A stretch of DNA of 64,000 bases from NCBI GenBank assembly GCA_963801355.1, contig CAWDEM010000004.1, forward strand, positions 1,312,001-1,376,000, written 5' to 3'. Source of the DNA: Ignavibacteriota bacterium. GTDB lineage: Bacteria > Bacteroidota > Ignavibacteria > UBA10030 > UBA6906. Below are positions 17,536-36,197 of this stretch, in pieces. Both the position numbers and the translations under genes were made by a program. Position 1 is the stretch's first letter; the number at the start of each line of letters is the position of its first letter. The notes beneath the pieces are model-generated. The model was not told the DNA's origin. It saw only the letters and a list, made by a program, of their open reading frames with translations, and did no database searches.

Positions 17536-18906
17536 ATGGATACAACGTCCCGCTTCGATGCAACGCATCCCCTCCCCCCGGGGTGGTTCCGCTGGCTCGT
17601 GCTGATCCTGATCAGCTTTGCGATGTTCGGCAACTATTACATCTATGACAGCATCAGTCCGCTTGCCGACGTTCTCAAAGCCCAGCTCGGCTATTCCGAT
17701 TCCGAAATCGGGCTCCTCAACGCCATCTATAGTTTCCCCAATATCATCATGGTGCTCATCGGCGGACTGATTATCGACCGCATCGGCACCCGCAAATCCG
17801 TGGTGATATTCACCGCAGTCATCATGATCGGGGCTGCCGTGACCTCGGCGTCGGGAAATATCGTCTCCATGGCTGCCGGGCGGCTCATCTTCGGCCTGGG
17901 TGCAGAATCCATGATCGTCGCCGTCACCACAGCTGTGGCCCGCTGGTTCAAGGGCAAAGAACTCTCGTTTGCGTTCGGCATCAATCTCACTGTTGCCCGT
18001 CTGGGTTCGTTCCTTGCGTTGAACGCCCCGACGTGGGGAAAGAGTCTCTACGAATACTGGCAGACCCCGCTCCTTATCACCGTCGCAGCCGGCGTATTTG
18101 CCATGCTCTGTGCGGCGCTGTATGCGCTCCTCGACCGTTCGGCAACGCGGTGGTATGCGGTGGAAAGCGATGGACGTCAGGAGAAGGTCGTCATCAAAGA
18201 GATCTTCAATTTTGGAGGGTCGTTCTGGTATATCACAGCGCTGTGCGTCACGTTCTATTCGGCGATGTTCCCCTTTCAGACCTTCGCGATCAAGTTCTTT
18301 CAGGAGGCGCACGGCACGACGCGGGAAGTGGGGGGGAATCTCTCCAGCATGCTGACCCTGGCCGCCATGATCTTCACCCCGTTATTCGGCCTCCTGGCGG
18401 ACCGAGTCGGGAAGCGCGCCCTGTTCATGATGTTCGGCTCCGTGCTGATCATTCCCGTCTACCTTATGATGGCCTATAAGGTCGATGTCGCAACACCGCT
18501 CGGACTTTCGGGATACATCGCCTTGAATATCGACTTCTTTGATATCCATTCACTCATCCCCGCGTACCTTGTCATTCCGATGTCGATGATGGGGATTGCC
18601 TTCTCCCTGATACCCGCGATCATGTGGCCCTCGGTTGCATATGTCGTCGATCAGTCGAAGCTGGGGACCGCGTACGGGTTGATGACCATGATCCAGAACG
18701 TGGGATTGTTCGCGTTCAATCTTTTGATTGGATGGGCGAACGATCTTGCCGGTGCGGGGGCGATGCACCCTGAGGGGTACACGCCGGGGATGTGGATTTT
18801 CTCGTCGCTGGGGTTCTTCGGATTCGTGTTCGCGTTCTTGCTGCGCCGCCGCGAAACCGGGCCGGCCGCACATGGTCTGGAAACGATCACAACCAAAACG
18901 CGGTAG
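17536..18906 (+). CDS. MFS transporter, MFSD1-like
   Basis: About 12 TM helices, motif A 'GLIIDRIGTR', 'FGNYYIYDSISPL', 'GRLIFGLGAES', 'WFKGKEL'. Confidence 0.88.
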   Translation: MDTTSRFDATHPLPPGWFRWLVLILISFAMFGNYYIYDSISPLADVLKAQLGYSDSEIGLLNAIYSFPNIIMVLIGGLIIDRIGTRKSVVIFTAVIMIGAAVTSASGNIVSMAAGRLIFGLGAESMIVAVTTAVARWFKGKELSFAFGINLTVARLGSFLALNAPTWGKSLYEYWQTPLLITVAAGVFAMLCAALYALLDRSATRWYAVESDGRQEKVVIKEIFNFGGSFWYITALCVTFYSAMFPFQTFAIKFFQEAHGTTREVGGNLSSMLTLAAMIFTPLFGLLADRVGKRALFMMFGSVLIIPVYLMMAYKVDVATPLGLSGYIALNIDFFDIHSLIPAYLVIPMSMMGIAFSLIPAIMWPSVAYVVDQSKLGTAYGLMTMIQNVGLFAFNLLIGWANDLAGAGAMHPEGYTPGMWIFSSLGFFGFVFAFLLRRRETGPAAHGLETITTKTR

Positions 18907-18940
18907 GCACGCGGGTGTGATGCCTCTGTGTGCCCTGATC

Positions 18941-19528
18941 CTATTTCTTCCGTGTCGTCTTCTTTGCCGGTTTTTTCGCCTTGGGCGGCTTCGCCTCTTT
19001 CGGTGGGGGTGTTTCCTTCTTTGTGACGAGCACCTTCCCGAGTTCTGCCTTCAATTTTTCGTAAGAGGCAAAGCGCTCGGTGAAGGCGATCTTCCCGTCT
19101 GAGCGGAGGACGATGATTCTCGGGAGCTTGACGATTTCGTAACTGGAAATGACGTCCGAATCCCGTCCGTACAGCACGGTATAGGGAAGCTTAAAGCTCT
19201 GTGCGTCGGCCTCCACACGACCGCGCATGTCGATCGGGTTGATCGAAAGAATCGAGACGTTTTTGTATTCACTCCAGATCTTTTTGAGAGGCGGAAACTC
19301 CGCCTGGCATTCCCTTCACTTCGACTTCCAGAAATGAAGAATCACTACGCTCTTGCCCGCGTAACTCTGCAGCGTGACGTTCTTGCCCGTTCCCACTGCC
19401 GGCAGGCTGAAGGCCGGCGCTTTGACGCCCGGTGCCAATCCTTCCCCGGCAAAGAGCATGTGTGCGCAGATCGTGAATACGGTAATGGCAAGTATGGTTG
19501 CTGAGCGTCTCATAGATTCCCGGGTCAT
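18941..19528 (-). CDS. exported TlpA/AhpC-like thioredoxin-fold selenoprotein (U-R-E-C); joins ORFs 19316-19528 and 18941-19228
   Basis: Reading through TGA at 19316-19318 gives ...APAFSLP...VILHFWKSK-U-REC-QAEFPPL...KLPRIIVLRSDGKI with no other stop (195 aa). Signal peptide present; SECIS-like hairpin 10 nt downstream. Confidence 0.92.
19289..19305 (-). promoter_or_regulatory. SECIS-like element for UGA 19316
   Basis: AGGCGG[AGTTT]CCGCCT, loop starting at +17 from the UGA. Confidence 0.8.
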
Positions 19529-21822
19529 TTGAGGAGGACCATGCGTTGTGCAAGCATCGTTGTTCCACTGGAGAAGCGGCAGATATATACCCCGGAGCTC
19601 AGCCCCGATGCATCGAACCGGAACCTGTGGTACCCGGCAGACAGTACCTCGTTCGCCAGAGAGGTGATCTCCCGGCCGAGAGCATCAAAGATTGTCAAAC
19701 GGCATAGTGTTTGTACCGGCACGCCGATCTCAATGGTTGTCGTGGGGTTGAAAGGATTCGGATAGTTCTGACGCATGACAAATGTCTCCGGCAGACCTTC
19801 TGCGCGGTCCCGCACGGCGGCAGAACCCGAGAGGTTCAAGCGGTACACACCGCTTCCCTCCGTGCCCGCGTAGAGACGCCTGTTCGTCCGGTCGTACGCC
19901 AGACATGTCGCCCGCACATTGCCGAGGCCGTTGGAAAAGTTGTTCCAGTTCTTCCCCCTGTCTGTGCTCCGCCACACACCACTTGCTGCCCCGGCATAGT
20001 AGATCCCGCTGCTGTCGGGATTGCAGAGCAGCGTGTATGCGTACATATAGCCGGCCGGCACAGTCCAGCTTGAACCGGCGTCGGTGCTTGTATACACGCC
20101 ATTGTTTGTCGTTGCCGCAAGCACGTTTACATTGAAGGGATCGATGACGATTTTCGTGATTGATTCATACTGCTTGCCGAAGGTACTGCTCCCGATCTGA
20201 TTCCACGTGCTTCCGGCATTGGTTGACTTGTATATCCTGCTGTAGGTTGGCCACGTGCTGCCGGAGGCATACACTCCTCCACCGGCATACATGATATTTG
20301 TATTGCTGGCTTGAATAGCCAGGGTCTGCACCTCACCCCCGGCGGTGTCCAAAGCGATGCGCGTCCAGTGTGTTCCGTCGTCTGTCGATTGGTAGACAGC
20401 CATATGGGATGGCTCGGTCGTGCTTGCGGGATTGAGCTTTCCACTGCCACCCTGGTACAATACTGACCCCAGAGCTACGACATAACCGTTATCCATGGAA
20501 TCGTCGAGAGTTATCCAAGTGGACCCGCCACTTGTGCTCCTGAGGAGCGCCGATGTGCCTCACCCACCGCCTTCAAAGGCGTACAGACGCTCCGGGTTGA
20601 CGGGAGAGATGAAGACGTCTGTGACGTTTTCGCATGAATAGAAATCCGGCAGTCTGCTCCACGTTACCGTGGATTGGGTAGCTCCGCTGGTTTTGAAGAC
20701 TCCGCTGTAATTGATCCCTGCGTACATGATCGTGGGTGACGACGGAGCGCACACAAGAGCGGTGACCATAGTGCCATTCAATCCCGTGCTCGTCTGCCTC
20801 CATGATGCACCGGCATTGGATGATCGGAACACTCCTGTTCTGTTGCCGATGAACACGCACGCAGGGGTCGATCCTTCAACGACCAATGGGTCCACGCCGC
20901 TGCCGACAATGCCGCTACTGGAGGTAGTGTCCCAGGTGGCCCCGCCGTCGGTGCTCTTATAGACGCCATAGCTGTACGTCGAGGCGAACATGACGTCCGT
21001 ATTTGGCAGGTAAAATGCAAGCTTCTCGGGCGCCGGGACGTACACTCCAGTCCACGAACTGCCGCCGTTGCTGCTCCTGTAGATTCCCGCTCCGGAGGCG
21101 ACGAAGATCTTTCCTCCGCCGCCCGGGTCGACAAGGATGTCATTCACCATGCCCGGTAGTGTTCCCGTGATGTCACCGAAGACCGAACCGCCGTCTGTAC
21201 TCTTGAAAATCCGGCCATAGATATACGAACCAATAACAACATATCCCCCTGCATAAACGTGTTGGGTGTTCGTTGGATCAACCGCGACAGCGTATCCGTA
21301 GCCGGTTCCGCTCGCAAGCGTGCGTACGGTCCAGTCCGTTCCGCTGTTCGTCGTCCGAAAGTAGGCAAAGGACGATATGGACCCGTCGTAGAAGTAGCCG
21401 GACAGATGGAATGTGGACGGGCTCGCTGGATCCCGCGCCAGATCCTGCGCATAGCAGTTGGTGGGAAGGTTTATCGAGGTCCACGTCCCTCCGCCGTCGG
21501 TGCTGGAGAAGAGAATGGAGTAGGCAACACCATAGACACGTGATGGATTGGAGGGATCCACTTCGAGCATTTGAGGTGTTGAAGGAATGGTCGCTGTGGC
21601 GAACCAATGTTCGCCGTGATCCGTTGTCTTCCACCCGTTCCCCGGATAACTCTGTGTTGCAGCATATAATATACTGGTGTTTGAACGTGACTGCGCGAGT
21701 GCAGTTATGTATCCTCCTTCAGGGCCGACGGATTCCCATCCGGGGGTCTGTCCCGCCATCTCTGGAGGACCCAGCATGACAGGTATCGTCAGACACACCA
21801 GAAACAGCAAATGAGTTTTCAT
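19525..21822 (-). CDS. secreted BNR/Asp-box beta-propeller with T9SS-type C-terminal tail and in-frame UGA (putative Sec421); joins ORFs 20560-21822 and 19525-20496
   Basis: TGA at 20560-20562 is in frame: YAFEGGG-U-GTSALLRSTSGGSTW (an Asp-box repeat) runs into the downstream ORF. Signal peptide is only in the 5' part, QNYPNPFNP tail only in the 3' part. 765 aa. Confidence 0.8.
20516..20548 (-). promoter_or_regulatory. tandem hairpins, candidate SECIS for UGA 20560
   Basis: GCTCC[TCA]GGAGC followed by a perfect CAAGTGG[CGGGT]CCACTTG (loop at +33). Confidence 0.55.
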
Positions 21823-21862
21823 GCGGACCTCTGCTTGATTGTGCCCACCCGCCTCCGGGTGA

Positions 21863-22651
21863 TCAACCGGGAGCGGAGAGCAAATTGCGGATCATTGTGT
21901 ACATTTCGGTAGTACGTTTGTACAGATTGTCTATACGGTACCGGACTACTCCCTTGCGATCAATAATGATAAAAGTGGGTGGCACATTGCCGAAAGAAAT
22001 GCCAACCCGGTATGCGCCGAACAGTGCGCTGGTTGAGTCATAGACAAGCGGGTACGCTACGCCGCTCTGGGTACGGAATGTGCGGAGCCACGTGACTGAA
22101 GATGTGTTGTTCACCCCCACCACCGCAAGACTCTCACGCGGGAAGCTTATGAAGATTTGCCATTGCACAGACGGCAACTCCGTCTGAATGCAATCCATTC
22201 ACGTATGTTCGAAAAAGACGAGGAGAACGACTTTCCCCCTCTGCTTATGCATTTCGAACAGCGAGTCATCAATGGTCCGCACGGTAAAGTCAGGCGCTTC
22301 GTTGTCGAGGAATGGGCCGATCTTTGTCAGGCGCATGAGCAAAGCCGCCACCTCGTTGCGGCGGACTGTAACCATCGTATCCGAGCGGGCGCCCGAGCTG
22401 TCTGCCACGGTGAGCTTGTGCATCCCGGCGACAACTCCATGCAGGGTGCAGGGATTGGGCAATTTCCCCTGAGGAATGTCGTCCAGGGCGACAGAGATTG
22501 AATCAAACACAAGCGTATCCATCGCCGTAACCGTGAGGGTGCCGGTGAACGGTTCGGGCATCCCCGTGGGTGGATCTCCGCAGCCCTTCACCGCAATGGC
22601 ATACGCTGCCCCGCACAGAATGAGAAGCATGCGATAATGCCTGCGCGTCAT
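21863..22651 (-). CDS. lipoprotein: PEGA-like domain + TlpA/AhpC-like selenoprotein domain (U-M-D-C); joins ORFs 22199-22651 and 21863-22198
   Basis: VKGC lipobox; APDFTV...GKVVLLVFFEHT-U-MDC-IQTELP...VPPTFIIIDRKGVVRY; TGA at 22199-22201; 262 aa. Confidence 0.92.
22162..22194 (-). promoter_or_regulatory. SECIS-like element for UGA 22199
   Basis: ATTGCA-TT-CAGACGG[AGTTG]CCGTCTG-TGCAAT: 7-bp upper stem and 6-bp lower stem, loop at +20. Confidence 0.85.
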
Positions 22652-22663
22652 CTTCTCCCTCTC

Positions 22664-23692
22664 CTAGAATGCATAGACAGCTCCAAGCATGTAGGTGTTC
22701 ATCTGGACACCAAGATTGCTGGCATAGTAACGGTATTTTGTGTAGAGCAGCCAGACAGCGGACATTTCACGGTTCAACTGAACGCTGAATGCCCGTGACC
22801 GCATGTTGTCCGGAATGATGATGCCTTCTTCACCCAGGCTCACATTGTCGCTCTTGTTCTGATATAGACGGAATTTCACCCAGAGGGTCGTCGCCCAGTT
22901 CAGGTACTGAGCGACTTCCAGAGCCGGGGCGAGCGAAGAAATCCCCATGGAGTTCGTGTACCAGCGGAGCGAAAGATGCACGGCGGTCTGGGTCGGCAGG
23001 AACTGGGAAAGCCAGACGCTGACGTTGTGTGAATTGAATGAAAACAGATCTCCATTTGCGTTATAGTACACGTATTCCGCCTGGACCGCCGTGGAAAGTG
23101 TCAGGACCTGGCGCGCCTTGAGGCGGAGATTGATTGTACCCATTTTCCCGCCCACCGGACCGGCGTCGGCACCGCGAAAGTAGAACTGGATATCGCCCTG
23201 CACAGAAGTGAGAGCGCTCATATCCCACAGTGCTCCGGTACCGGCTTGAAAGGCCGCAAAGCCACGGGAGTCATATTGAAACTGCGTTGCTGCGATTCCG
23301 ACGACGGTTGAACTCAAGTTCCGGGTATACTTGATCTCGGCCAGGTGCTGCGCTACGTCTTCCTTGATGTCAGAGTACTGGTACTTCACCCCGAGTTGAG
23401 CTGCTTTGCCGACAAGGCGTGTGTATTTGATGAGTGCCCGCTTCTCGGGGAAGTTCGCGATGTACGGCAAGTTCTGCTGGTAACCGGACACGCCGTAGTT
23501 GTAGATGATCGGCTCGGGGTATTCGTACTCCCCATAATCGGCGTATTGAAGCTCAACTTTGAGCTTGCTCTTCAGCTCAAACGAGTCGTCGTAACCCTGT
23601 GAGTAAAGGGACGAAGACACGAGGGCAAGCGCCGGGAGGATGATGGCGACGTGGTACCTGCAGAGCCTATGAATATGTCTCACCTGAGACAT
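22664..23692 (-). CDS. putative outer-membrane beta-barrel protein
   Basis: Signal-like N-terminus, alternating aromatic/hydrophobic beta pattern (KYQY, QFQY, KYRYY), C-terminal ...GAVYAF; ATG at 23692 after GAGGG. Confidence 0.8.
   Translation of the reverse strand: MSQVRHIHRLCRYHVAIILPALALVSSSLYSQGYDDSFELKSKLKVELQYADYGEYEYPEPIIYNYGVSGYQQNLPYIANFPEKRALIKYTRLVGKAAQLGVKYQYSDIKEDVAQHLAEIKYTRNLSSTVVGIAATQFQYDSRGFAAFQAGTGALWDMSALTSVQGDIQFYFRGADAGPVGGKMGTINLRLKARQVLTLSTAVQAEYVYYNANGDLFSFNSHNVSVWLSQFLPTQTAVHLSLRWYTNSMGISSLAPALEVAQYLNWATTLWVKFRLYQNKSDNVSLGEEGIIIPDNMRSRAFSVQLNREMSAVWLLYTKYRYYASNLGVQMNTYMLGAVYAF
23675..23692 (-). promoter_or_regulatory. SECIS-like element for UGA 23703, overlapping the barrel start codon
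   Basis: Perfect ATGTCTC[AGGT]GAGACAT, loop at +18. Confidence 0.8.
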
Positions 23693-23696
23693 GGCC

Positions 23697-23930
23697 CTAC
23701 CCTCAGGTAGGGCAGGCCGCAGCCTCCCCGACGGCGCCGGTACCGTTCTCGATTTGCGAGATATCTTCGTCATTGTCCTGCAGGTTTTTCATGATCGCGC
23801 AATTGACGCGGCTTTCCATCTGCAGCGACTGACGTGACGATACACAGCTGGTGAGAAACGAGGAAAAAAGGAGGGAAATGACGATGAGAAGAATTGGACT
23901 GATGGTGTGTGATTCCCTGCCGCGAGCCAT
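23697..23930 (-). CDS. small lipoprotein selenoprotein ending C-P-T-U-G-stop
   Basis: GGGGAG RBS, hydrophobic signal with LTSC lipobox; ...GCC TGC CCT ACC TGA GGG TAG; SECIS-like hairpin downstream; 77 aa. Confidence 0.82.
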
Positions 23931-23980: not shown

Positions 23981-24009
23981 AAGTTAGGGGAACGAAAGAT
24001 CAATGTCAA
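23981..24009 (-). promoter_or_regulatory. sigma-70 promoter of the selenoprotein operon
   Basis: TTGACA-17 bp-TAACTT on the minus strand, about 50 nt before the lipoprotein start. Confidence 0.65.
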
Positions 24010-24230: not shown

Positions 24231-26384
24231 GTGAACACTCTGAATTCCCTCGGTTGCGCGCTCTTTGCGCTCTTCCTCACGGCGGAAACCGGTCTCAGTC
24301 AGTGGGTTCAGGTTGGACCGTCAGGCTTCCTTTCCTGTCTCCTAAAGACCCCCGCAGGGCTCTTTGTCGGCTCCGCGGGCGCCGGCATCTACTTTTCCTC
24401 TGACAATGGCATCTCATGGCGAGGCGCAAATCTTGGGCTCACAAGCCAAAATGTTACCGGCATGACCAATATCGGACAGGATGTCTTTGCCTCGACACGC
24501 GGGGGAGGTGTGCTGCTCACTACAGACAACGGTGCTACTTGGGCTCCAGTCAACTCGATGCTGATCAGTCAGGATGTTGGATGTGTGACAGCTATCGGCA
24601 CTGGAGTCCTGGCAGGACCAACCGGATATGGAGCGTTCTTCTCTCCGGATCGCGGAACGACCTGGCAGCCCTTCGGCAAAGGACTCGCCATGGAAACTGT
24701 GAACGCCTTCTTTTCGAAGGATTCCAGGATTTTTGCGGGGACTATGCAGGGTGTGTACGCAACGTCAGACGGTGGAAAGAATTGGTTTTCCTCAAATGCC
24801 GGTCTCCCCGCCAACGGCCGGGTGACCGCATTCGCGTCGACTGACACACTGATCTTTGCAGGCGTCCACAATGGAGGGGTCTACATCTCTACAGACAACG
24901 GCGTTTCGTGGTCAACTGCCGGCACGGGACTTACCGACAGCAATGTGACGTGCCTGGCGAGCGTTGTTCTCCCCGGGTCGACGGCGCGGAGACTCCTGGC
25001 GGGCACGGCAAGAAGAGGATTGTTTGCATCCACTGATAACGGCGCAAATTGGGCTCCAGTGGATCTCGGACTGTCGAGTCTTCAAGTGGATGCGCTCGCA
25101 TCCGACGGCTCAGTTGTCTATGCGGCGCTGGAGGAAGGAGTGAGAGTCTCGAGTGATGCGGGCCTTCACTGGGGAGACGCCGGAGCGGGTGCGCCTACAA
25201 GAACGGTGATGGGTCTCGGACTCTTCGGAACGAATCTGTATGTCGGCACTAACCGCACTGGTGTCTATGTCACGGCCGACATGGGCAATACCTGGGCTCC
25301 TGCAAACCAGGGCCTGACGGGTTACGACATTTCGGCCATGACTGTTGCGGGTACTACTCTCTTCGTGGGGACGTCCGGGGGAAGACTCTTCCGTCGTGAG
25401 ATGTCTGATTCCAACTGGTTTGCGGCGAGCTCCCAGTTCGCAAATCTGCCCTTCAATGTGCTCGGCGCCGCGGGCAATGTCCTACTTGCCAATCCAGGCT
25501 TTCGTGGAATTCATTATTCCACAGACATTGGCGCCAACTGGCTTTACGGTCAGGGATCGGAAGCCGACCAGAACGGGACATCCTTTCTCTCCTTCGCGGT
25601 GGGCCAGGGTTACATTTTTGCAGGGTCATTGAACTTCGGAGCCTTCCGCTCTGCCGACAATGCTGTCAGCTGGCAACGCAAGAACAACGGCCTGGGCAAT
25701 TTCACCGTGCGCGCGCTCGCCCTGGATGGTTCGCTCCTCTTTGCCGGAACCTCGGCCGGCCTCTTTGTGTCGAGCAACAACGGCGAAACCTGGCAAAGCG
25801 GCAGCACGATGCTGGCCGGCTCGCTGGTGAGGGGCCTCGCGGTCTCCGGCAACACGATCATCGCCAGCACCGGAGACCAGGGCATATGTGTGTCGACAGA
25901 TCATGGCATAACCTGGCAACAGGCCAACCAGGGATTGTCCGGCGCGGCCACAACTCTCGTGTCCTGCGATGGTTTGCTCGTCTATGCTGGTTCGACTCTG
26001 GGTGGGCTTTATCGCCGCTCACTTTCCGAGATGCTCTCTTCTCTTAGTGGCCTCCCGGCGTTGCGAGAGCTCCCGACCGATTTCCTGCTTTGCCAGAACT
26101 ACCCCAACCCGTTCAATCCAACGACCACGATCCGTTATGGCTTACCCAATCGTTCGCAAGTCGCTCTGATAGTCTTCAACACGCTCGGTCAACGAGTGGC
26201 ACAGCTGGTTGATGGCGAGAAGGATGCAGGGTATCACGAAGTGCAGTTTGACGCATCAGGACTCTCATCAGGCGTGTACCTGTATCGGATGCAGGTCCGC
26301 CCTATGGACTCCGCCATCGGGCGGGACTCCAAGAGCGGACCTGGGAGCTATGTGGACGCGAGGAAGCTGGTCTTGTTACGCTGA
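24231..26384 (+). CDS. secreted BNR-repeat beta-propeller protein with T9SS-type C-terminal sorting domain
   Basis: Signal peptide, more than ten S/TxDxGxxW repeats, QNYPNPFNPTT...RKLVLLR. Confidence 0.9.
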   Translation: MNTLNSLGCALFALFLTAETGLSQWVQVGPSGFLSCLLKTPAGLFVGSAGAGIYFSSDNGISWRGANLGLTSQNVTGMTNIGQDVFASTRGGGVLLTTDNGATWAPVNSMLISQDVGCVTAIGTGVLAGPTGYGAFFSPDRGTTWQPFGKGLAMETVNAFFSKDSRIFAGTMQGVYATSDGGKNWFSSNAGLPANGRVTAFASTDTLIFAGVHNGGVYISTDNGVSWSTAGTGLTDSNVTCLASVVLPGSTARRLLAGTARRGLFASTDNGANWAPVDLGLSSLQVDALASDGSVVYAALEEGVRVSSDAGLHWGDAGAGAPTRTVMGLGLFGTNLYVGTNRTGVYVTADMGNTWAPANQGLTGYDISAMTVAGTTLFVGTSGGRLFRREMSDSNWFAASSQFANLPFNVLGAAGNVLLANPGFRGIHYSTDIGANWLYGQGSEADQNGTSFLSFAVGQGYIFAGSLNFGAFRSADNAVSWQRKNNGLGNFTVRALALDGSLLFAGTSAGLFVSSNNGETWQSGSTMLAGSLVRGLAVSGNTIIASTGDQGICVSTDHGITWQQANQGLSGAATTLVSCDGLLVYAGSTLGGLYRRSLSEMLSSLSGLPALRELPTDFLLCQNYPNPFNPTTTIRYGLPNRSQVALIVFNTLGQRVAQLVDGEKDAGYHEVQFDASGLSSGVYLYRMQVRPMDSAIGRDSKSGPGSYVDARKLVLLR
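26295..26340. repeat. in-frame ~45-bp palindromic insertion in secretion tail (copy 1)
   Basis: GTCCGC..TGGA..CGCC ATCG GGCG..TCCA..GCGGAC; near-identical copy at 28389-28433. Confidence 0.7.
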
Positions 26385-26657
26385 CCTTGGCGCACAATGA
26401 TTCATGGCCCGGCATTGTCGGGCCCGTCCACTTTGTCTCCATCCAGTGAACCGCTTCGAACGGTGGAGTATATTGCGCGCGGAATCACTTGCGAGGAAGA
26501 CGCAATTCTCCGTCAGGCTCCCCGTCACCCAACGGCACGGAATACCGCGAATACGGTATTGAAATGCCCAGCAATTAAACCGTATATTTCCAGGAATGCC
26601 GCACCAGAACAACACACAGGCAGGCCAAACCCAATTCATCAACTGGAGGATACTGTC

Positions 26658-28478
26658 ATGATGCTCATGCGTCTAGTCGCGGTGCTTATCGCATGCGTGC
26701 TGTTGTGGGCGGTCTCTGCGCCGGCGCAGTCTCTTGAGGAGCTGCAAAACGACGAGATCAACGTGGCGACACGTCCATCCAATGATGTCCAGCAGCTGGC
26801 AAAGGAATTGTCGCAAGCCCGAAAAGCCGGTGATTACACCCGTGCAAGGGAGCTGGAGCGCATACTCTTCACCGCCATGCCCACTCTTCCCGCGGATGCC
26901 GCGCCGCTGATCTACGGGGGCAGCTACGACATGCCGGAAAACACGGCGGGTCCTCTCTGGGGCAACGACGTGAAGATCTACACCGGCCCCGTATGGTCAA
27001 ACGGCAAACGCCAGCTTGCCATCGATGCAGATACCCTCAAAGGCATCTATATCGGTATCAATGCAAAATACCAAGACACGCTCTCTCAAATCCTCGTTTA
27101 TCGTTCGACGAACGAGGGAAAGAACTGGACCTTCTTGACCAGATTCTATTCGACCGGTCAGGCATTCCAGTCGTTCGATATGTGCGTCACCGATACGGCT
27201 GGTGGTAAGTGGCTACTGGGATTCTCGCTTGTTCTCAAGACTGACAAGAGCGCAGCCGGCGGCGGTCATCTCTATTGGGGGAGCGTACTGAGCGACGGCT
27301 CGGATTGGCGGTACAAACTCATTGCCCCTGCGAGCCCTTCCACCAACTTCAGGAACCCAAGCATCTGCACGGATGGCACATACTACCCTCCCGGGACGAC
27401 CTATCACTACGTTGCCGCGGAATTTGTAAACCCTGCGACGGATGTGCCGCGTGGCCTGTTTGTCACCCGCACGACGGACTGGGGGAAGAACTGGGTCACC
27501 CCCGATAGTTCCATCAAAAACGTCCAGGAATCGACGCCCGTCATCGCCATCGACTGGAGCACGACCCCGGACAGTCTGTGCCTTGCGTTTACCCGGTTTA
27601 CAACTCCGAGTCGCGAAATCCGCGCTGCCCGCAATTCGATCACATTCTCCGGTGGATGGACAATCACCTATTTGGTGACCAAGACGGATGACTATGATCC
27701 TTCCATGGCAATTGACCCGATCCGGGGCAATGCTATCATCACCTATACTCGTGCCACGGGCGCACCGACGTACAACGATATTCTGTACCTCTACACTACA
27801 GATCTCTTCAAAACATTCAGCCGGGACAGCATCGCCGCAAGCACGGCAGTTGAGGAACTCAGCTCGGTGAGCTATGCGCCGTGGAAGACCGGTTACTATT
27901 GGAGGGTGGCATATCGCTCATCTCTCGGCACTGACACCATTTACTACAAAGCGGTCATGGACAAGCTTACGGGATTCTACACAACCAAGCCTACTGATGT
28001 GAGCCAGTATCAACCTTCGACACTTATCGCGCCGGTCGTTGGATTCGATAGAGACATCGGAGGAACAGATTACCGCGGCAATTGCGCTTACGTCGGCTAC
28101 GGGCCTCAAAATGTATATTTCGATGCGGTCGACATGGTGCTGGATGTCCCCATCGAGGAAGGCGTTCCTGCAGCATATGCACTTCACCAGAACTACCCCA
28201 ACCCGTTCAACCCGACGACGACCATCAAGTACGAGTTGCCCAAGTTGTCGGAAGTGACTTTGGGTGTGTATGACATGCTCGGTCGTGAGGTATCGGTGCT
28301 GGTGAATGACAGGAGGGATGCGGGAGTTCATGAAGCGAAGTTTGACGGAGCAGGGCTGTCAAGCGGGATGTATTTCTATCGGATGCAGGTCCGCCCTCTG
28401 GAATCCGCCATCGGGCGTGACTCCAAGAGCGGAGCAGGAAACTTCATTCAGACGCGCAAGCTGCTATTGTTGAGATGA
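26658..28478 (+). CDS. secreted protein with Asp-box repeats and T9SS-type C-terminal sorting domain
   Basis: GGAGG RBS, signal peptide, RSTNEGKNW and RTTDWGKNW, QNYPNPFNPTT...RKLLLLR. Confidence 0.9.
   Translation: MMLMRLVAVLIACVLLWAVSAPAQSLEELQNDEINVATRPSNDVQQLAKELSQARKAGDYTRARELERILFTAMPTLPADAAPLIYGGSYDMPENTAGPLWGNDVKIYTGPVWSNGKRQLAIDADTLKGIYIGINAKYQDTLSQILVYRSTNEGKNWTFLTRFYSTGQAFQSFDMCVTDTAGGKWLLGFSLVLKTDKSAAGGGHLYWGSVLSDGSDWRYKLIAPASPSTNFRNPSICTDGTYYPPGTTYHYVAAEFVNPATDVPRGLFVTRTTDWGKNWVTPDSSIKNVQESTPVIAIDWSTTPDSLCLAFTRFTTPSREIRAARNSITFSGGWTITYLVTKTDDYDPSMAIDPIRGNAIITYTRATGAPTYNDILYLYTTDLFKTFSRDSIAASTAVEELSSVSYAPWKTGYYWRVAYRSSLGTDTIYYKAVMDKLTGFYTTKPTDVSQYQPSTLIAPVVGFDRDIGGTDYRGNCAYVGYGPQNVYFDAVDMVLDVPIEEGVPAAYALHQNYPNPFNPTTTIKYELPKLSEVTLGVYDMLGREVSVLVNDRRDAGVHEAKFDGAGLSSGMYFYRMQVRPLESAIGRDSKSGAGNFIQTRKLLLLR
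28389..28433. repeat. in-frame ~45-bp palindromic insertion in secretion tail (copy 2)
   Basis: GTCCGCCCTCTGGAATCCGCCATCGGGCGTGACTCCAAGAGCGGA. Confidence 0.7.
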
Positions 28479-28666: not shown

Positions 28667-28765
28667 TGGCGGGGACGGGTGGGGATCGAACCCACCTCCC
28701 GGGCTTTTCAGTCCGGGACAACGGATTTGAAGTCCGCGGGGACCACCAGGTTCCCTTTCATCCCC
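28667..28765 (-). tRNA. selC: tRNA-Sec (anticodon UCA)
   Basis: 99 nt; GCGGA-CTTCAAA-TCCGT anticodon arm, TGGT D-loop, long variable arm with GAAA loop, GTGGG-TTCGATC-CCCAC, G73 and encoded CCA; directly after selD. Confidence 0.96.
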
Positions 28766-28825: not shown

Positions 28826-29914
28826 CTATCCCTCCAGTTTCAAGAAGACTGGCCTTCCTTCCGGTGATTGCATCAAGGGAATGACCTCTCCCACTTGACG
28901 CGCCGCAGTATCTCCAGCCTCGTGCAATGCATGTACTACTTCATGGACGCGATCTGACGGGACCGCCGCAAGGAGTCCGCCGGATGTCTGCGGATCGGTC
29001 ATCAACCTGAACTGGGCCCCGGATACCGCATCCGAGCGCATTGTGTGGGGTTCGACGTACTGATCCGATGTGATCTTGTGAGCTGATGGCGATACATCCA
29101 TGAGCGCAAAAGTTGATTCAAAACAAGGCAGGAGCGAGGCGTGGAAGACCAGAGTCACGCCGGCGTTCCGGGCGATGGGCAACGCGTGACCGAGCAATCC
29201 GAATCCCGTAACGTCCGTCATCGCGCTGACCTCGAACTTCTCGAGGACCCCGGAGGCGTACATATTCAGACGCTGCATGCTTGTGGCAAACTCTTCATAT
29301 TGTGCGATGGTCAGGCGATCTTTCGAAAGTGCCTCGGCATAGATGCTCGTGCCAAGCGATTTTGTGAGAATCAGCGCGTCACCGGCACGCGCGTGTGCGT
29401 TGGTCACAACCCGGTCAGGATGGATCGTGCCGGTCACGCTCATGCCGTAGAAAATCTGCTCCTGTTCCATAGAGTGGCCGCCCATGAGGACGACGTGGGC
29501 TTCCTGGAGTTTTTCCGCTGCGCCGGTGAGAAGCTTCGCTATGACTTCGGTGGGTATCAGCTTTGCGGGATACGCCAGGATATTCATCGCCGTCAGTGGC
29601 CGTCCGCCCATGGCCCACACATCGGAAAGACTGTTGGCAGCGACGATGCGCCCGAAAGTCCGCGCGTCGTTCACCACCGGTTGAAAGAAATCCAGTGTTT
29701 GCACCAGCGCCAGTTCCGGCGTGAGACGGTATACACCCGCGTCGTCCATGGTATCCATGTCGACCAGGATATCCGGTGACGATATCCGGGGAAGGCGGGA
29801 AAGAATCCCTGCCAACCTGGCAGGGGAGATTTTGCCCGCTCACCCAGCGCAGGCGGCGTAGGAGAGCAGTCGTATCTCCTTGCCACCCGGCATGTAGGGA
29901 GCCGTTTCTATCAT
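28826..29914 (-). CDS. selD: selenophosphate synthetase, Sec-containing (C-A-G-U-A-G-K); start 29914 or 29893
   Basis: IRLLSYAACAG-U-AGKISP with TGA at 29840-29842; DDAGVY, TLDFF, ANSLSDVWAMGG, DVTGFGLLGH, DPQTSGGLL. Confidence 0.96.
29807..29825 (-). promoter_or_regulatory. SECIS element of selD
   Basis: CCCTGCC[AGGTT]GGCAGGG, loop at +22, with AATC/GATT lower stem. Confidence 0.88.
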
Positions 29915-30732
29915 GGCGGACATCCAATCCTATTATTGAGGGGATGTACAGCGAACGTGTTGTCCTTCCACTCCTCTGCAAGCAGTGCAGCGCCGAGTGC
30001 GCCGGTGAATTCCGGATCATCGGGGACCAGAATCGTCCGCCCGGTAACCGATTGAAGCGCGGCCACCACTCCCGGATTGCGGGCAACGCCGCCGGTGAAG
30101 ATCACCTGGTCTTCCCATCCAAGCCGGCCAGCCATGCCGATCACACGGCGCGCGACGGACTGAAACACGCCATTGAGGATGGAGGAGGCGGAGATACCCT
30201 GATGGAGCAATCCCACGATCTCGGTCTCGGCGAATACCGCGCACATCGAAGTGATCTCGCAAATTGCCGTGGTGGAAAGAGCGAGCCGGCCGGTATCCTC
30301 CACCGGCACCGAGAGCGTTCGTGCGACGGTCTCCAGAAATCGCCCGGTCCCCGCGGCACAGCGGTCGTTCATCGCGAACTCCAGCACCGAGGCCCGGGCA
30401 TCCAGCCGCATCATCTTGGAATCCTGGCCGCCGATATCAATTACCGTGCGAGCATCCGGAAAGCATGCGTGTACACCGGTCGCGTGACACCGGATTTCGG
30501 AATATGTTCCATCGGCGGCGGTGAAGTAGTGCCGGCCGAGACCCGTGGCAATGGTGCACTGCACGTCCTGCCGCTGAATGCCGTGGGTCTCCAGAACGCG
30601 CTGGTACAGCAATCCGGCATTCTCTCCGGGCGACGGACCGGATGGACACATCCCCCGGCCAAGCATCACGCCGTCTTCCAGAAGCACCACCTCGATTGAG
30701 GTTGAGCCGATGTCAATGCCCGATGTCAACAT
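29911..30732 (-). CDS. ASKHA-fold [4Fe-4S] ATP-dependent activase (HgdC/BadF/DCCP-R type)
   Basis: GIDIGSTS, ATGLGR, IDIGGQDSK, MNDRCAAGTGRFLE, SMCAVFAETE, FTGGVARN. Confidence 0.92.
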   Translation of the reverse strand: MLTSGIDIGSTSIEVVLLEDGVMLGRGMCPSGPSPGENAGLLYQRVLETHGIQRQDVQCTIATGLGRHYFTAADGTYSEIRCHATGVHACFPDARTVIDIGGQDSKMMRLDARASVLEFAMNDRCAAGTGRFLETVARTLSVPVEDTGRLALSTTAICEITSMCAVFAETEIVGLLHQGISASSILNGVFQSVARRVIGMAGRLGWEDQVIFTGGVARNPGVVAALQSVTGRTILVPDDPEFTGALGAALLAEEWKDNTFAVHPLNNRIGCPP

Positions 30733-32008
30733 GAGTCTTGCTGTGCTCGTGGAGCACCTCGCTAAACGATTCCAGGCGCACGGAGAGTCTGTCCAGATCC
30801 TCGTACGAATAGTCTGTCACAATGGTAAGCGAAGGCACAGATCGTTTGCCGAGTTCCCTGTCAAGCGCCCGCGCCTCAATATTGTATGCATGACAAAATG
30901 AGAGAATGTGATGCACTACGCCTTCAATGTGGTACATGTCGAGAATCTGCCGGATGTTGTCCACACGCTCGCTGTTGGGCGAAAAGCACGCACAGTCAAT
31001 GGCGAAGTACCTGTCGGCAATCGCATCCAGCAGGCCGTCTATGTCACGAGGAGATTCATCGACCGGGTCCCGGAAGTACCGCATACCCGTGCATGTTTCG
31101 TCGGCAACGATTCGCATGCCGTGCTGTTCCACCGCGAAATGGACTTTTGCATAGCCGAGGGGTGACGGAGATCCGGCCACAAGAATCCGCGGGCCACGGT
31201 GCGGGTAGGCCGGGACTTCTCGCTGGACGCGGTCGTTGAGCTCATCCAGGAGTTCCTGTGCAATACGGATGAAGGCGGTCGGGTCCATCGCGAGGGCTGC
31301 CTGAGAGACCAGCAGGGCATCCAGTCCGGACAGGGGAGGCTCTTCGTTTTTCCGGAGTGCGTTGATGTCCTGAAGGACCCTCCTGCGTTTATTCACAAGT
31401 GCAACTGACTCCCGGAGGGTTTCACAGGTAATCGTCGTGCCACTCAGTTGTTCAATGAATTGCCGGAACTCGCGCACTTCAGAGCGCCAGAGCTCTTTGT
31501 CCAGAGGATTCTTTTTCTGGGGCACTTCGAGGACACGAAAGCCGAGGAGATCCCAGGCCTTCTTCTTAGCATCGCAAGTTGTTTCACCGACTACGGCATC
31601 CTTGAGGTTCTTGTAGGGACAGGTTCCGCTGAATGCCATGCCAAACGTTGACCGGATCAGCGGGCAGATATCCCGCGGGAACATTTTGTCCGCGTAGTCC
31701 ACCGGCCAGTTGCTGCCGCCGCAGAGGGGTATGGGGATGACACCTGCCGCAAAGGCGATTTCGTCCGGCACATAGATGCAAAAAGTTCCGATGGATTTGC
31801 TGCCCGCGCTTCTCTGCGCGGCGATTTCCGCTACGCGTGCGCCATGGCTGGCGTAAAACGCCTCGTCGAACAATGCCATGGCAGACGGCCGCCGCTCCGC
31901 AGCACCAAACGTTCGCTTGTGCAGCGCGGAGTTGTAGGCCTCCAGACGGTCATGCAGCTCGAGATTGACACCCACAGATGCCAGCAAGCTTCGCAATTCC
32001 TGTCCCAT
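30713..32008 (-). CDS. 2-hydroxyacyl-CoA dehydratase superfamily protein, single-chain double-cubane-cluster reductase type
   Basis: GTFCIYVPDE, LCGG, PRDICPLIRS, CPY, GETTCDAKKK, ETCTG, IDCACFSPN, FCH; adjacent activase; TGATG overlap with selB. Confidence 0.85.
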   Translation of the reverse strand: MGQELRSLLASVGVNLELHDRLEAYNSALHKRTFGAAERRPSAMALFDEAFYASHGARVAEIAAQRSAGSKSIGTFCIYVPDEIAFAAGVIPIPLCGGSNWPVDYADKMFPRDICPLIRSTFGMAFSGTCPYKNLKDAVVGETTCDAKKKAWDLLGFRVLEVPQKKNPLDKELWRSEVREFRQFIEQLSGTTITCETLRESVALVNKRRRVLQDINALRKNEEPPLSGLDALLVSQAALAMDPTAFIRIAQELLDELNDRVQREVPAYPHRGPRILVAGSPSPLGYAKVHFAVEQHGMRIVADETCTGMRYFRDPVDESPRDIDGLLDAIADRYFAIDCACFSPNSERVDNIRQILDMYHIEGVVHHILSFCHAYNIEARALDRELGKRSVPSLTIVTDYSYEDLDRLSVRLESFSEVLHEHSKTHVDIGH

Positions 32009-33906
32009 CAAAGTCCCTTCAGCACGCGCACATCTTCGTGCCGCTCGGTGAACCCATTCCTGTCCAGGTATTCCAGCAGGGGAACTACATACTTGCGTGT
32101 CATTGCCAGATGCTGCCGGAGCTCACTGGTTGTGCCCTTGCCATGGATGCGCAGGTACTCGCCCAGACGTTTTTGTGCCTCTGTGATGCCGTTCCTGTGC
32201 ATCAACAGGCCCTCTTCGAGGTGAATCAGATCCCCGCATTCCGTGATGTGTGTGACCAACTTCTCGGCGCCCTTCCCCAGTTCGGCCACAATTTCCCCGG
32301 TATCAGGTGGTGTCAGCAGATTCGTGAGGTACTTCTGCAGAATCATGTCCCTGAGTCTTTTCTGGTCGGCGGAGAGGGATACGGTGTGCCCTTCACAAGC
32401 GAGCTGCTCTCCATGTTTGACGATACGTGATTCTTTCAGGAGTTCGTCTACGATGATTGCGAGGAGCCGCTTGTCAATGGCCGGTTTGATGCGAGAAGCC
32501 AATTCGGGGGCGGGGACACCCACGCGGAGAGGGTTCTCCTGATGAAAACGCGTCAGCGCATCCAGCACGTGCGTGCGGAGGGTCAGCTTGTTGCTGAGGG
32601 CAAACCACGTCTTGCCTTCGAGGCAGAGCACGCAACGGCGCTCCTCGAGGACGTGGAGATACTGCAGGCATGTCTCCAGAGGGATCGCTGCTGTCCTAGC
32701 AAGCTCAGCTGCGGTTACAGGTGCAACGGCAAATCGCTGGAGTTGCTGCAACACATGTTCTGCTGGGTCGCCTTTGACCGCCTGCTGCAGGCGTTCAAGC
32801 ACATCGCCCTGGAATCTCCGGTGTTTTCCGGGCCTGACGTCCAGGACCGTCCCGCCTCCAAGAGTTTGAAGAGGCGAATAACTCCTGAGGACATACCGGT
32901 CTCCATCGTCGGCCACGATGGGCCGCTCAAAGTGGAGCTGGACAAAACCCTCCTTCCCGGGCTTCAGCTCTTCCTGGTCGAGAAGGAGGACCCGTGCGAT
33001 GACTTCCGTAGTCCCCAAATGGATGCGGACGCGCGTGCGGTGCTGCAACGGCCCCGGTGCAGTGGCGAGGTAGAGAAGATGAGCATCCACCATGGACGTC
33101 GGGTGGTAGTATCCCGGGGTCCCAAGCACGTCGCCGCGTTCCACAACTTCACGTTCCAGCCCTTGCAGATTGACTGCCGTGCGAAGCCCAATGCTGCTTT
33201 CCTGGACGGTCTGATCGTGGACCTGGATTCCCCGAACGCGAAGAGGTCTGCCGATGGGGAGGAGTTCAACCGTGTCATCCACGCGGATACTGCCCGAAGC
33301 GATCGTTCCCGCGACTACCGTCCCGAAGCCCTTGATGGAGAAGACTCTGTCGATGGGCATCCGGAAGACCCCTTTGTCGGTCCGCTGGCGGACCAACCCG
33401 GCTTCCCGGAGGATGGCGCGGTGCAGCTCGTCTATGCCCTCTCCGGTCACGGCGCTCACCCTGTACAGAGGAGCTCCGCCGAGGAAAGTACCCTTCACCA
33501 GCTGCGCAATATCGGCGCTGACCAGGTCCAGCCACTCCGGTGCCACAATGTCCACCTTGTTCAGCGCTATCAGCCCGCGGGGAATCTTCAGGAGACGGAG
33601 GATTTCCAGATGCTCCCGGGTTTGAGGCATGACGCCGTCATCCGCCGCAACGACAAGAAGGGCAAAATCCACCCCGGTCACACCGGCCACCATGGTTTTG
33701 ACGAACCGCTCGTGTCCCGGGACGTCGATGATGGCCACCGAGTCTCCCAGGAATGCGAACCCGAGGTCGGTGGTCATCCCGCGTTCCTTCTCCTCTTTCA
33801 GGCGGTCCGTATCGATGCCGGTGAGCCTTTTGACAATTGCAGTCTTTCCGTGGTCGATATGTCCCGCCATGCCCATGACTACATGTCGTGTGTGAGGGCT
33901 ACCCAT
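32008..33906 (-). CDS. selB: selenocysteine-specific elongation factor
   Basis: [30 protein letters not shown]-terminal winged helix [13 protein letters not shown]. Confidence 0.97.
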
Positions 33907-35305: not shown

Positions 35306-36197
35306 GAGAAATGCCCCAGGTGACGGAGACATGTTTGCACACCGTACACTTCAAGCAACGGATACAGTCGGGCGAATTCGGATCATCCGAAATTTTGATG
35401 TCCACCGGGCAGACCTTCACGCAGAGATCGCAGTCCGCGCATTTGCCTTCGACATGCATGCGCATAAGACTGACACGATTGAAGTAGGCATAGATTGCGC
35501 CCAGCGGGCAGAGTGCGCGGCAGAAAGGTCGTTTGATCAGGATGAACAAGACGAGGAAGATGCCGAGAATAGACAACTTCAGGACATAGAGCCATCCCAC
35601 CATATCGGGTTCGATCACCGGGGCTCCCAATGCAGGATCGACAGGGTTCCAGAGCATCCAGGGAATCCCGGCGATGAGTGTCCCCCAGGGGCAGATGCGG
35701 GAGAACCAGTGGTCCTCTGTGAGCAGGGGGAGGAGAATTGCGAGGACGGCGAGCGAAAGAAACTTGCCGGATTTGAAGAATCGGGGCAGGCGTAACTTCA
35801 CACTCGGGATCTTGTGGATGGTGTCCTGAAGCCAGCCGAAGGGACAGAGCCATCCACACGCCGCGCGTCCGAACAACATGCCAATTGAACCGAGCATGCC
35901 GAGCAGGAAGAACGGCACTTGCCTGATTGCGACAAACGACTGCAGGATACCGATGGGGCAGGCCATGAAGGCTGACGGACAGGCGTGACAATTCAGAAAG
36001 GGCACACACCCCTGTTTGAGGGGGCCCGCATAGATCTGCTTGGTGAACGCGACGGGGTAGTAACCGTTGGAGAGGATGAGGCCGATGCCCACAACAATGA
36101 AGAGCCGGATCTTACGGAGTCTGGAGTAGAGCGGCCTGCTCTCTCTGGTTGTTGCGGGATGTTCCGGGATCAACTGATCCCGATGCAGTCCAGTCAT
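35259..36197 (-). CDS. membrane-bound 4Fe-4S protein (NapH/RdxA-like); start ATG 36197 or TTG 36173
   Basis: CVPFLNCHACP..CPIG, GRAACGWLCPFG, FCRALCPLG, CADCDLCVKVCP, CIRCLKC..C; several TM helices. Confidence 0.88.
   Translation of the reverse strand: MTGLHRDQLIPEHPATTRESRPLYSRLRKIRLFIVVGIGLILSNGYYPVAFTKQIYAGPLKQGCVPFLNCHACPSAFMACPIGILQSFVAIRQVPFFLLGMLGSIGMLFGRAACGWLCPFGWLQDTIHKIPSVKLRLPRFFKSGKFLSLAVLAILLPLLTEDHWFSRICPWGTLIAGIPWMLWNPVDPALGAPVIEPDMVGWLYVLKLSILGIFLVLFILIKRPFCRALCPLGAIYAYFNRVSLMRMHVEGKCADCDLCVKVCPVDIKISDDPNSPDCIRCLKCTVCKHVSVTWGISHERGPERSVSTAAQG
36165..36182 (-). promoter_or_regulatory. SECIS-like element for UGA 36194
   Basis: Perfect CGGGATC[AGTT]GATCCCG, loop at +19. Confidence 0.85.

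Follow-up and report, generated by a model that had tools for sequence, protein, structure and literature searches.

A selenoprotein-rich cell-envelope operon in an Ignavibacteriota bacterium: four very probable selenoproteins, an outer-membrane barrel and a possible redox relay

What is encoded on the minus strand between positions 23930 and 18941 of this stretch of an Ignavibacteriota genome, where a reading with translation table 11 gives broken fragments only? The stretch (64,000 nucleotides of contig CAWDEM010000004.1 in assembly GCA_963801355.1, hereafter the window; its source genome is denoted G000) had been predicted from its letters to hold a hidden five-gene operon in which four genes encode selenoproteins. 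Once TGA is read as selenocysteine (Sec), five co-oriented and tightly packed genes, here named g1 to g5, do appear on the minus strand, each of them at the place given by that original prediction:

23697-23930, minus strand: g1, small lipoprotein, TGA at 23705-23703, stop TAG at 23699-23697
22664-23692, minus strand: g2, outer-membrane beta-barrel, 342 aa, no TGA
21863-22651, minus strand: g3, lipoprotein with a thioredoxin fold, TGA at 22201-22199
19525-21822, minus strand: g4, secreted double propeller of 765 aa, TGA at 20562-20560
18941-19528, minus strand: g5, exported thioredoxin fold, TGA at 19318-19316

The gaps between g1 and g2, g2 and g3, and g3 and g4 measure 4, 12 and 40 nt, respectively, and g4 and g5 overlap in the sequence ATGA. 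Export signals were predicted on all five products (lipobox, signal peptides, barrel fold and the tail typical of the type IX secretion system, T9SS). Judging from sequence comparisons, the four TGA-containing genes very probably encode real selenoproteins, and the set of five is likely to be a thiol/selenol redox module of the envelope. As an explanation of the whole, we consider it reasonably probable that a conserved operon, forming part of the sel locus in uncultured Bacteroidota/Ignavibacteria-like bacteria, encodes four selenoproteins and a barrel that work together as a relay.

The case for Sec begins with the conservation of the TGAs. Pattern scans yielded 12 related loci in metagenome-assembled genomes, which carry the labels Bacteroidota, Ignavibacteria or 'bacterium', and 27 loci from metagenomes, all 39 being fetched through the barrel gene, and these were compared by tblastn with TGA read as Cys, the best match per locus being kept and the window counting as one row. 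L003 (a copy of L011) was dropped, as were L001 and L002 (copies of the window and of the relative G007); the rows are still partly dependent, as L006 and L018 are the same contig in two collections and L033 and L034 are alike. TGA stands at the g1 site in 34/34 rows, at the g3 site in 29/29 and at the g5 site in 17/17, and at the g4 site in 17 of 20 rows, or 17 of the 18 that cover the site. The g4 exceptions are L011, the G007 locus, which is frameshifted, and L019 and L022 (contig end before the site, off-register blade). None of these rows has a Cys codon at one of the four sites. Protein identities across the related loci range from 31 to 79%, coding conservation persists in frame past the TGAs of g3, g4 and g5, and the sequences following the TGA include 28 (g1), 25 (g3), 15 (g4) and 14 (g5) distinct ones. 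The tBLASTn alignment of UGA columns that had been proposed with the original prediction thus came out in its favor, with TGA kept at all four sites and homology on both sides of it for g3 to g5.

The second line of evidence is structural. A hairpin of 6-7 bp had been claimed after each UGA, and a perfect 7-bp stem was found downstream of each of the four TGAs in the window:

23675-23692, minus strand: g1 hairpin ATGTCTC-AGGT-GAGACAT, 10 nt after the TGA, with the g2 ATG start in its 5' arm
22168-22186, minus strand: g3 hairpin CAGACGG-AGTTG-CCGTCTG, after the g3 TGA
20516-20548, minus strand: two g4 hairpins, GCTCC-TCA-GGAGC (20548-20536) and CAAGTGG-CGGGT-CCACTTG (20534-20516)
19289-19305, minus strand: g5 hairpin AGGCGGA-GTT-TCCGCCT, after the g5 TGA

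These hairpins resemble selenocysteine insertion sequence (SECIS) elements, and in alignments of the related loci their stems covary. For g1, 83.2% of the cells are paired, with changes on both sides in 6 of 7 pairs, as opposed to 32-53% in slid controls; the corresponding values are 88.0% and 5 of 7 pairs for g3, 90.0% and 4 of 12 pairs for g4, and 94.9% and 3 of 7 pairs for g5. Over all four stems, 0/500 shuffles reached the covariation score, a figure that is not a probability as the shuffles ignore relatedness, and slid partners were paired in 27-63%. The bacterial SECIS (bSECIS) model has a rule for the spacing and one for a G in the loop. In the loops found here, G is the second base in AGGU (g1), AGUUG (g3) and CGGGU (g4), and the first base in GUU (g5).

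Two of the hairpins are also coding elements of another kind. The second g4 hairpin encodes a BNR motif, S-G-G-S-T-W, and its stem forces complementary swaps between Ser and Thr codons. The mean folding energy is -9.9 kcal/mol for the Sec-adjacent BNR site (n=14) and -3.7 kcal/mol (standard deviation 1.9, n=96) for BNR motifs elsewhere in these genes, not one of which is as low. In g1, the start codon of g2 is part of the stem. This accounts for the nucleotide-level conservation at the beginning of the barrel precursor (M-x-Q-V-...), and translation of the barrel may be coupled to Sec decoding of g1.

Could the TGAs instead be something other than Sec codons, namely real stops (in genes that are split or dead), errors of assembly, or codons for another amino acid under an altered code? 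Public gene calls do stop at them. All 43 database homologues of g1 end in ...CPT (42 in AAACPT, one in ATACPT), meaning that their calls terminate at the TGA. In an exhaustive g4 profile search, which matched 593,061 proteins at E values up to 0.001, seven of the best 150 matches are fragments of 416-447 aa that cover profile positions up to 430 only, indicating gene calls that were shortened at the g4 TGA. In addition, one relative has a broken g4. Against this stand the occurrence of the same TGA in independent assemblies (14-28 distinct sequences for each site), the coding conservation beyond it, the covarying hairpins and the complete Sec machinery beside the operon. A global reassignment of TGA was rejected because it is an ordinary stop here, ending 24 of the 47 open reading frames (ORFs) of at least 200 aa in the window, which makes it the commonest stop, and ending g3 and g4 themselves. 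We regard this alternative as very improbable and already largely refuted.

The Sec machinery lies upstream of the operon in the window, and the claim that selABCD is about 5 kb away held, as the tRNA-Sec gene, selD, selB and selA are found at a distance of 4.7-11 kb:

28667-28765, minus strand: selC, tRNA-Sec with anticodon UCA (ARAGORN; Rfam RF01852, 67.9 bits)
28826-29923, minus strand: selD (TIGR00476, 301-321 bits, one TGA inside the match)
32008-34041, minus strand: selB (TIGR00475, 359.6 bits)
33899-35332, minus strand: selA (TIGR00474, 584.6 bits)

SelD is itself a predicted selenoprotein. Its gene has an in-frame TGA at 29842-29840 (AACAG-U-AGK), its table-11 ORF begins only downstream of that TGA, and a perfect 8-bp hairpin, CCCTGCCA-GGT-TGGCAGGG, starts 14 nt after it. 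The linkage between these genes and the operon extends beyond the window. A tRNA-Sec gene was found inside 22 of 37 scanned related loci, mostly 100-250 nt before g1, and no other tRNA was found there; 20 of 39 loci have a selD homologue upstream, and selB, selA and a double-cubane reductase lie further up in some. The barrel gene is present in two of 61 relatives, G000 and G007, and in one of 401 genomes of a phylum sample, this being G000 itself; among the 61 relatives, selA is likewise confined to G000 and G007. With conserved TGAs, covarying hairpins, coding conservation past the TGAs and linkage to selC and selD, the proposal of four selenoprotein genes in one conserved operon was borne out.

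Two intervals of the sel region hold other genes. Between the operon and selC, at 24231-28478 on the plus strand, are genes for two T9SS-tailed proteins, one of 717 aa that is a BNR propeller paralogue free of TGA and the other of 693 aa; these look like an insertion because selC directly precedes g1 in many related loci. Between selB and selD, at 29911-32011 on the minus strand, are genes for an anaerobic reductase of the double-cubane-cluster kind (NF040772, 390 bits) and for its acyl-CoA-dehydratase-type activase. The reductase is found at the same place in six related loci, with 62-84% identity, and it may have a role in selenium reduction for SelD.

A genome-wide scan for further Sec TGAs was calibrated on the known sites; it required a perfect 7-bp stem and is blind to C-terminal cases like g1, and hence is no census. 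Stricter thresholds, used before calibration, recovered g5 alone of the known sites. The calibrated scan gave 15 candidates, eight of which are overshadowed by a longer ORF with a better score. Two more were rejected: at C4:1298144 a T9SS protein really ends, with a terminator-like hairpin behind it, and C4:1243838 is antisense to annotated-looking genes. The five left were selD, g3, g4, g5 and one new gene, which becomes a sixth candidate selenoprotein (L065 403-1929, plus strand, TGA at 553-555, corresponding to C8:1151952 in G000). Its predicted product is an exported Thioredoxin_2/Thioredoxin_7 protein with TPR repeats and the motif FSPG-U-GGC, and a 7-bp hairpin, ATTGCTG-GGT-CAGCAAT, lies 11 nt after its TGA. 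The idea that the Sec machinery serves the operon alone was rejected, as SelD and this sixth candidate use it too.

The ends of the operon are marked by the following elements:

23981-24009, minus strand: promoter-like TTGACA (24009-24004), 17-nt spacer and TAACTT (23986-23981) upstream of g1, read directly from the sequence
18898-18912, minus strand: terminator-like hairpin with a T-run, 29 nt past the g5 stop, from a consensus scan only

The TTGACA-17-TAACTT promoter had been part of the original prediction; its hexamers and spacer are present, but the site is missing from the results of a sigma-70 scan, its second hexamer agreeing with the consensus at only 3/6 positions. The consensus scan found seven terminator-like sites in the region versus 4.7 expected. 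The ATG start of g1 at 23930 is preceded by AAGGGGAG, and a GTG at 23936 is an alternative start.

What kinds of proteins does the operon encode? The smallest, g1, has the lipobox LTSC, a mature part of ~49 aa and the C-terminus ...GEAAACPT-U-G-stop. A lipobox Cys and the C-P-T-U-G end are invariant in 26 of 26 distinct full-length sequences. At the nucleotide level, all 34 rows read C-P-T-TGA-GGN-stop, with one Gly codon after the TGA in every case (GGG, GGT or GGA) before the gene ends in TAG, TAA or TGA, so that the variation is synonymous. No match to g1 was found in Pfam, even at E values up to 10, or in NCBIfam.

By sequence, g3 and g5 belong to a known kind of selenoprotein. The lipoprotein g3 has an N-terminal domain of ~100 aa followed by a TlpA/ResA-like thioredoxin fold with U151 in FFEHT-U-MDC, and it scores above the cut-offs for AhpC-TSA (PF00578, 54.6 bits) and Redoxin (PF08534, 33.9 bits). 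In g5, which has a signal peptide and a Lys/Pro-rich tail, U71 lies in FWKSK-U-REC and the scores are 60 and 45.5 bits, again above both cut-offs. U-x-x-C occupies the CxxC place in all 29 g3 rows, where the motif is T-U-x-x-C, and in all 17 g5 rows. A 2026 review (PMC13188914), in the part available to us, lists a UxxC Prx-like thiol:disulfide oxidoreductase (PF00578) and Redoxin family (PF08534) selenoproteins, which g3 and g5 resemble in passing the cut-offs of these families and in having U-x-x-C at the CxxC place. Unlike those listed, g3 has a lipobox and the extra N-terminal domain. Scores against curated NCBIfam selenoprotein models are 17 bits versus a cut-off of 300 for WAxxUGC_long and 18 versus 100 for redoxin_TUGYCR. 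Of the eight AhpC-TSA matches in G000, g3 and g5 alone have a TGA, and the four molybdopterin enzymes of the genome are all without one. Some loci vary in their thioredoxin folds: an additional g3-like gene, located between the barrel gene and g3, has Gly (L006 3545-4264), Ser (L019 1346-1771) or TGA (L024 2479-2871) at the Sec column, L012 and L033 have a further TGA-containing thioredoxin-like match ~2 kb downstream, and g5 was not found in L004 and L008 despite sequence being present there.

The largest product, g4, is a double seven-bladed BNR propeller with a GH74-like fold and a T9SS type A C-terminal sorting domain. It matches Sortilin-Vps10 and Por_Secre_tail and falls half a bit short of NF045728 (F510_1955; 174.5 bits versus a cut-off of 175), and its T9SS tail (TIGR04183/PF18962) scores 32 bits versus cut-offs of 23 and 27. 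SprA (846.7 bits) and at least 150 ORFs with a type A sorting tail (223 candidates) were found in G000, and a T9SS secretion route is, on these matches, present in that genome. Sec421 lies in the loop LYAFEGGG-U-GTS, and the codon of Cys397 is at 20634-20632. Each of 17 g4 ORFs (16 loci plus the window) has exactly one in-frame TGA, and columns 397 (Cys) and 421 (Sec) are the sole Cys/Sec columns that are invariant in all 17. At most loci there is no Met within a stretch of 25 residues past the TGA, from which it follows that the T9SS tail can be produced by read-through only. In L028 (7778-12492), Sec propellers occur in tandem with a TGA in both copies.

The AlphaFold2 (AF2) model of g4 has a predicted local distance difference test (pLDDT) value of 84.7, and in Foldseek its first matches are GH74 xyloglucanases with TM scores of ~0.58 (range 0.55-0.59) and an E value of ~1e-23. 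Like the xyloglucanases 5fkq, 6p2n, 4lgn and 2cn3, g4 consists of two tandem seven-bladed propellers, and its profile matches these chains at E=1.9e-31. It differs from them in having 15-20% identity and in bearing a Cys-Sec pair and a T9SS tail. Sec421 could not be mapped onto the catalytic Asp pair of GH74, as the hidden Markov model alignments of these repeats to PDB chains are out of register; a catalytic Asp of GH74 may lie in the inter-strand loop that corresponds to the Sec421 loop.

The barrel, g2, was modelled by AF2 with 16 strands at a mean pLDDT of 77.9, and its sequence ends in ...VYAF. Its top Foldseek matches are PgaA (4y25), PelB and porins, and FadL is also among the nearest folds. 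In a large protein database 79 homologues were found, at 53-98% identity. Residues 56-76 (YEYPEPIIYNYGVSGYQQNLPY) are among the most conserved parts of the barrel, with Y56, Y58, P59, E60, G67 and Y71 invariant; they are modelled at a pLDDT below 50 and occupy the place where the flavinylation-site region lies in canonical DUF3570. They may form a plug or docking loop. A complex prediction for g1 and g2, run on the window's own table-11 proteins, scored 0.03 versus a mark of 0.34 and weighs neither way.

How might these proteins work together? From their predicted locations and by analogy, the operon probably encodes a Sec-based redox chain leading to the cell surface. Lipid-anchored g3 and soluble g5 would be periplasmic selenol/thiol reductases, and a DsbD/CcdA-type membrane protein from outside the operon would probably feed them (DsbD_TM proteins are encoded elsewhere in G000); they would reduce the C-x-x-U-Gly tail of g1. 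The flexible Gly/Ala-rich tail could then reach through or into the 16-strand barrel g2 and hand reducing equivalents to g4, type IX-secreted and held at the surface, where the pair Cys397-Sec421 would form the last redox site and act on an extracellular substrate. A Sec-based relay had already been proposed in the original prediction; the redox-type motifs and export signals speak for it, and its spanning of the membrane rests on predicted locations and analogy. The step in which electrons cross the outer membrane via g1 and g2 to g4 is tentative and, in our estimate, somewhat doubtful. Rather unlikely, but worth stating, is the strongest form of the idea, in which a haem- and flavin-free selenol electron conduit, with the g1 tail threading g2 to recharge a surface Cys-Sec center in the GH74-like cleft of g4, travels with selC, selD, selA and selB as a 'selenium island' and is the main reason why these lineages acquired and keep the Sec trait.

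Several findings count against this reading. At the level of Sec, the test of Cys/Sec pairing is weak for g1, as 0/43 of its database homologues have a Cys form. Read-through of g1 adds Sec-Gly only, and the GGN-stop overlaps a possible ribosome-binding stretch of g2, so that the conservation of the g1 end is not fully independent evidence. Among 13 near-full-length, single-stretch, TGA-free relatives of g4, column 421 is Cys in one (P0229) and another residue or a gap in 12, column 397 is Cys in two, and none has Cys at both. The Cys-Sec pair thus marks the operon-linked clade, and the classical argument from pairing carries little weight for g4; a word-based search around the g4 site gave three matches, with no Cys form among them and with P0086 gapped at the loop. 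In G007 (61% complete; L003 5880-6060, equal to L011), g4 has no TGA at the site and instead a frame change, ...VLEGGG-L-stop. The homologous frame resumes there at -1/+2, and another in-frame TGA lies four residues before the conserved Cys (PTG-U-FISC). A pseudogene, an error of assembly and a different arrangement are all conceivable for this g4.

Further such findings concern the system as a whole. The layout had been compared with Cys-based clusters of DUF4266, DUF3570 and TlpA proteins, yet the g1 family gave no match in hhalign to 15 canonical DUF4266 (PF14086) sequences, and g2 scores 9.1 bits against PF12094 (DUF3570) versus a cut-off of 25 (E=0.66), with nothing else usable among its Pfam and NCBIfam results. 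A precomputed PF12094 match exists for 4 of the 79 g2 homologues. Alignment of the g2 family with DUF3570 by hhalign gave E=6.7e-4 and a probability of 27%, in the C-terminal half only, and the flavinylation motif [ST]GA[ST] is present in 1 of 30 g2-family members versus 18 of 20 canonical DUF3570 proteins. No ApbE was found in G000, which is rated 100% complete, and a DUF3570 family search placed canonical copies in 68 of 301 genomes of the phylum and not in G000. The operon has no gene for an electron donor. Finally, a short variant of the locus (L012, L013, L014, L033/L034) has the order selD-barrel-g3-g5 without g1 and g4, with tRNA-Sec directly after g5, from which it follows that the barrel works without its proposed threaded partner. 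For the predicted gene order this means that the operon does recur in related loci, but not always with all five genes. In every locus long enough to judge, g1 and g4 are jointly present or jointly absent.

As the short variant is a working core without g1 and g4, an alternative of a channel with reductases was retained, in which the selenoproteins are real and serve the uptake or detoxification of small chalcogen or metal(loid) species with no outward electron relay. In detail, g4 would capture or reduce an extracellular Se, S or metal compound, g2 would be the channel, and the U-x-x-C proteins and the g1 tail would carry or reduce the compound, e.g., towards SelD. A barrel and two thioredoxin folds, the core that is kept in all variants, fit a channel with periplasmic reductases, and the nearest folds of the barrel (PgaA, PelB, FadL and porins) are substrate channels and secretins. 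The association of the cluster with selD (20/39 loci) and selC (22/37, mostly just before g1 or after g5) also fits, although selenoprotein genes often adjoin sel genes without having a role in selenium supply, as does the double-cubane reductase with its activase between selB and selD, here and in six loci. According to the part of PMC13188914 available to us, many of the selenoproteins predicted in bacteria are implicated in the handling of metals or metalloids. However, the operon encodes no inner-membrane transporter, no metal-binding family was matched, and the short variant does without g1 and g4, meaning that surface capture is not essential. On balance, we judge this explanation unlikely.

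The joint presence and absence of g1 and g4 is what would be expected of a client and its dedicated reductase, and thus bears on a second alternative, which we consider improbable. Here, g1, g3 and g5 would be real selenoproteins acting in the periplasm only, with no passage through the barrel, and g2 would be an unrelated porin-like partner; the set would either keep g4, and other envelope proteins, folded, repaired and reduced before type IX export, or defend against peroxide or disulfide stress. The thioredoxin folds of g3 and g5 are ordinary TlpA/ResA-like ones, whose Cys relatives act in periplasmic maturation, and the sixth candidate selenoprotein is an exported thioredoxin fold as well. 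The barrel gene, on the other hand, is the most conserved member of the operon, being present in 39/39 loci, a count that is partly circular as the loci were fetched through it. In addition, the g2 start codon inside the g1 SECIS-like stem argues for coupled synthesis, and the redox pair of a surface enzyme would have to be re-reduced even after export.

If the four genes encode selenoproteins, two families are added that are shortened in public gene calls and were not found in current lists, the lipoprotein with a C-P-T-U-G tail and the secreted double propeller, and g4 would be a first candidate for a selenoprotein that type IX secretion presents on the surface of a bacterium. The two families seem to be Sec-only, with no Cys form among close relatives, and methods that rely on Cys/Sec pairs would thus miss them. 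The linkage of selD, selC and the operon, together with the matching presence of selA and the barrel (2/61, in the same genomes), offers a testable case of the Sec trait moving with one client system. If the relay is also true, it would be a new way of carrying reducing power across the outer membrane, and it would provide the uncharacterised DUF4266/DUF3570 systems with a function-bearing relative.

How does the operon compare with known systems? Animal thioredoxin reductase ends in a Gly-Cys-Sec-Gly tail. The g1 tail is analogous in its penultimate Sec, final Gly, nearby Cys and flexibility, features that would suit a mobile selenenylsulfide shuttle; it is unlike that tail in its spacing (C-x-x-U rather than C-U) and in belonging to a 49-residue lipoprotein rather than to a flavoenzyme. 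In MtrCAB-type porin-cytochrome conduits, a periplasmic carrier inserted in an outer-membrane barrel passes electrons to a surface-exposed terminal protein, and the logic proposed for the operon would be similar by analogy. Unlike MtrCAB, the five translations contain no haem motif CxxCH, the barrel has 16 strands, and the carrier would be a selenol/thiol peptide.

Firmicutes, a group that enters the next comparison, have no outer membrane. Operons with several selenoprotein genes, namely frhA-frhD-hdrA-glpC, SAO (with six selenoprotein genes) and Tso, are described in the available parts of PMC13188914 and of a preprint (Haft, 10.1101/2022.07.06.499078), where the SAO system is reported to occur mostly in Firmicutes. 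As far as these partial sources go, the operon resembles the frh/hdr, SAO and Tso operons in having several selenoprotein genes of one pathway together, and SaoC resembles g1 as a small signal-peptide protein with a redox or metal motif at its extreme C-terminus. The operon differs from all of them in its families, its compartment (outer membrane and surface) and its lineage. The main text of PMC13188914 was found to contain none of the terms lipoprotein, propeller, BNR, T9SS, PF14086, PF12094 and NF045728. More generally, no description of the C-P-T-U-G lipoprotein or the Sec propeller was found in the literature searched, with supplements and most subscription journals outside the search, and within that scope the view that such a system had not been described still stands.

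The nearest described system is the cluster of DUF4266, DUF3570 and thioredoxin genes, the likeness being one of layout with no demonstrable homology. Clusters of DsbD, thioredoxin-like, DUF4266 (with a C-terminal CXC), DUF3570 and ApbE proteins were proposed as an extracytosolic electron path by Meheust (2021, eLife; PMC8238504, available in part), and in Chlorobia-type loci the order is Trx-DUF4266-DUF3570, with DUF4266 ending in GGGGCGCN. The operon shares with these clusters, as described in that part of the source, a small exported protein with a C-terminal redox motif, followed by a DUF3570-like barrel, beside an exported thioredoxin fold. The comparison made in the original prediction identified the closest neighbor in the literature by layout; at the level of sequence, g1 has no detectable similarity to DUF4266 and g2 is sub-threshold for DUF3570. 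In size, lipobox and position g1 agrees with DUF4266, but its motif is C-x-x-U-G (C-P-T-U-G) instead of C-X-C; g2, at 342 aa versus ~420, falls below the Pfam cut-off for DUF3570 and is without its two [ST]GA[ST] flavinylation sites. Compared with the clusters in PMC8238504, so far as the available part describes them, the operon has no ApbE in its genome and no DsbD in the cluster, and it adds two U-x-x-C thioredoxin folds, a T9SS propeller selenoprotein and linkage to selC and selD. The operon is thus, by all appearances, an envelope redox cluster of a known kind that depends on Sec and does without flavin, and it brings with it two apparently unlisted Sec-only families.

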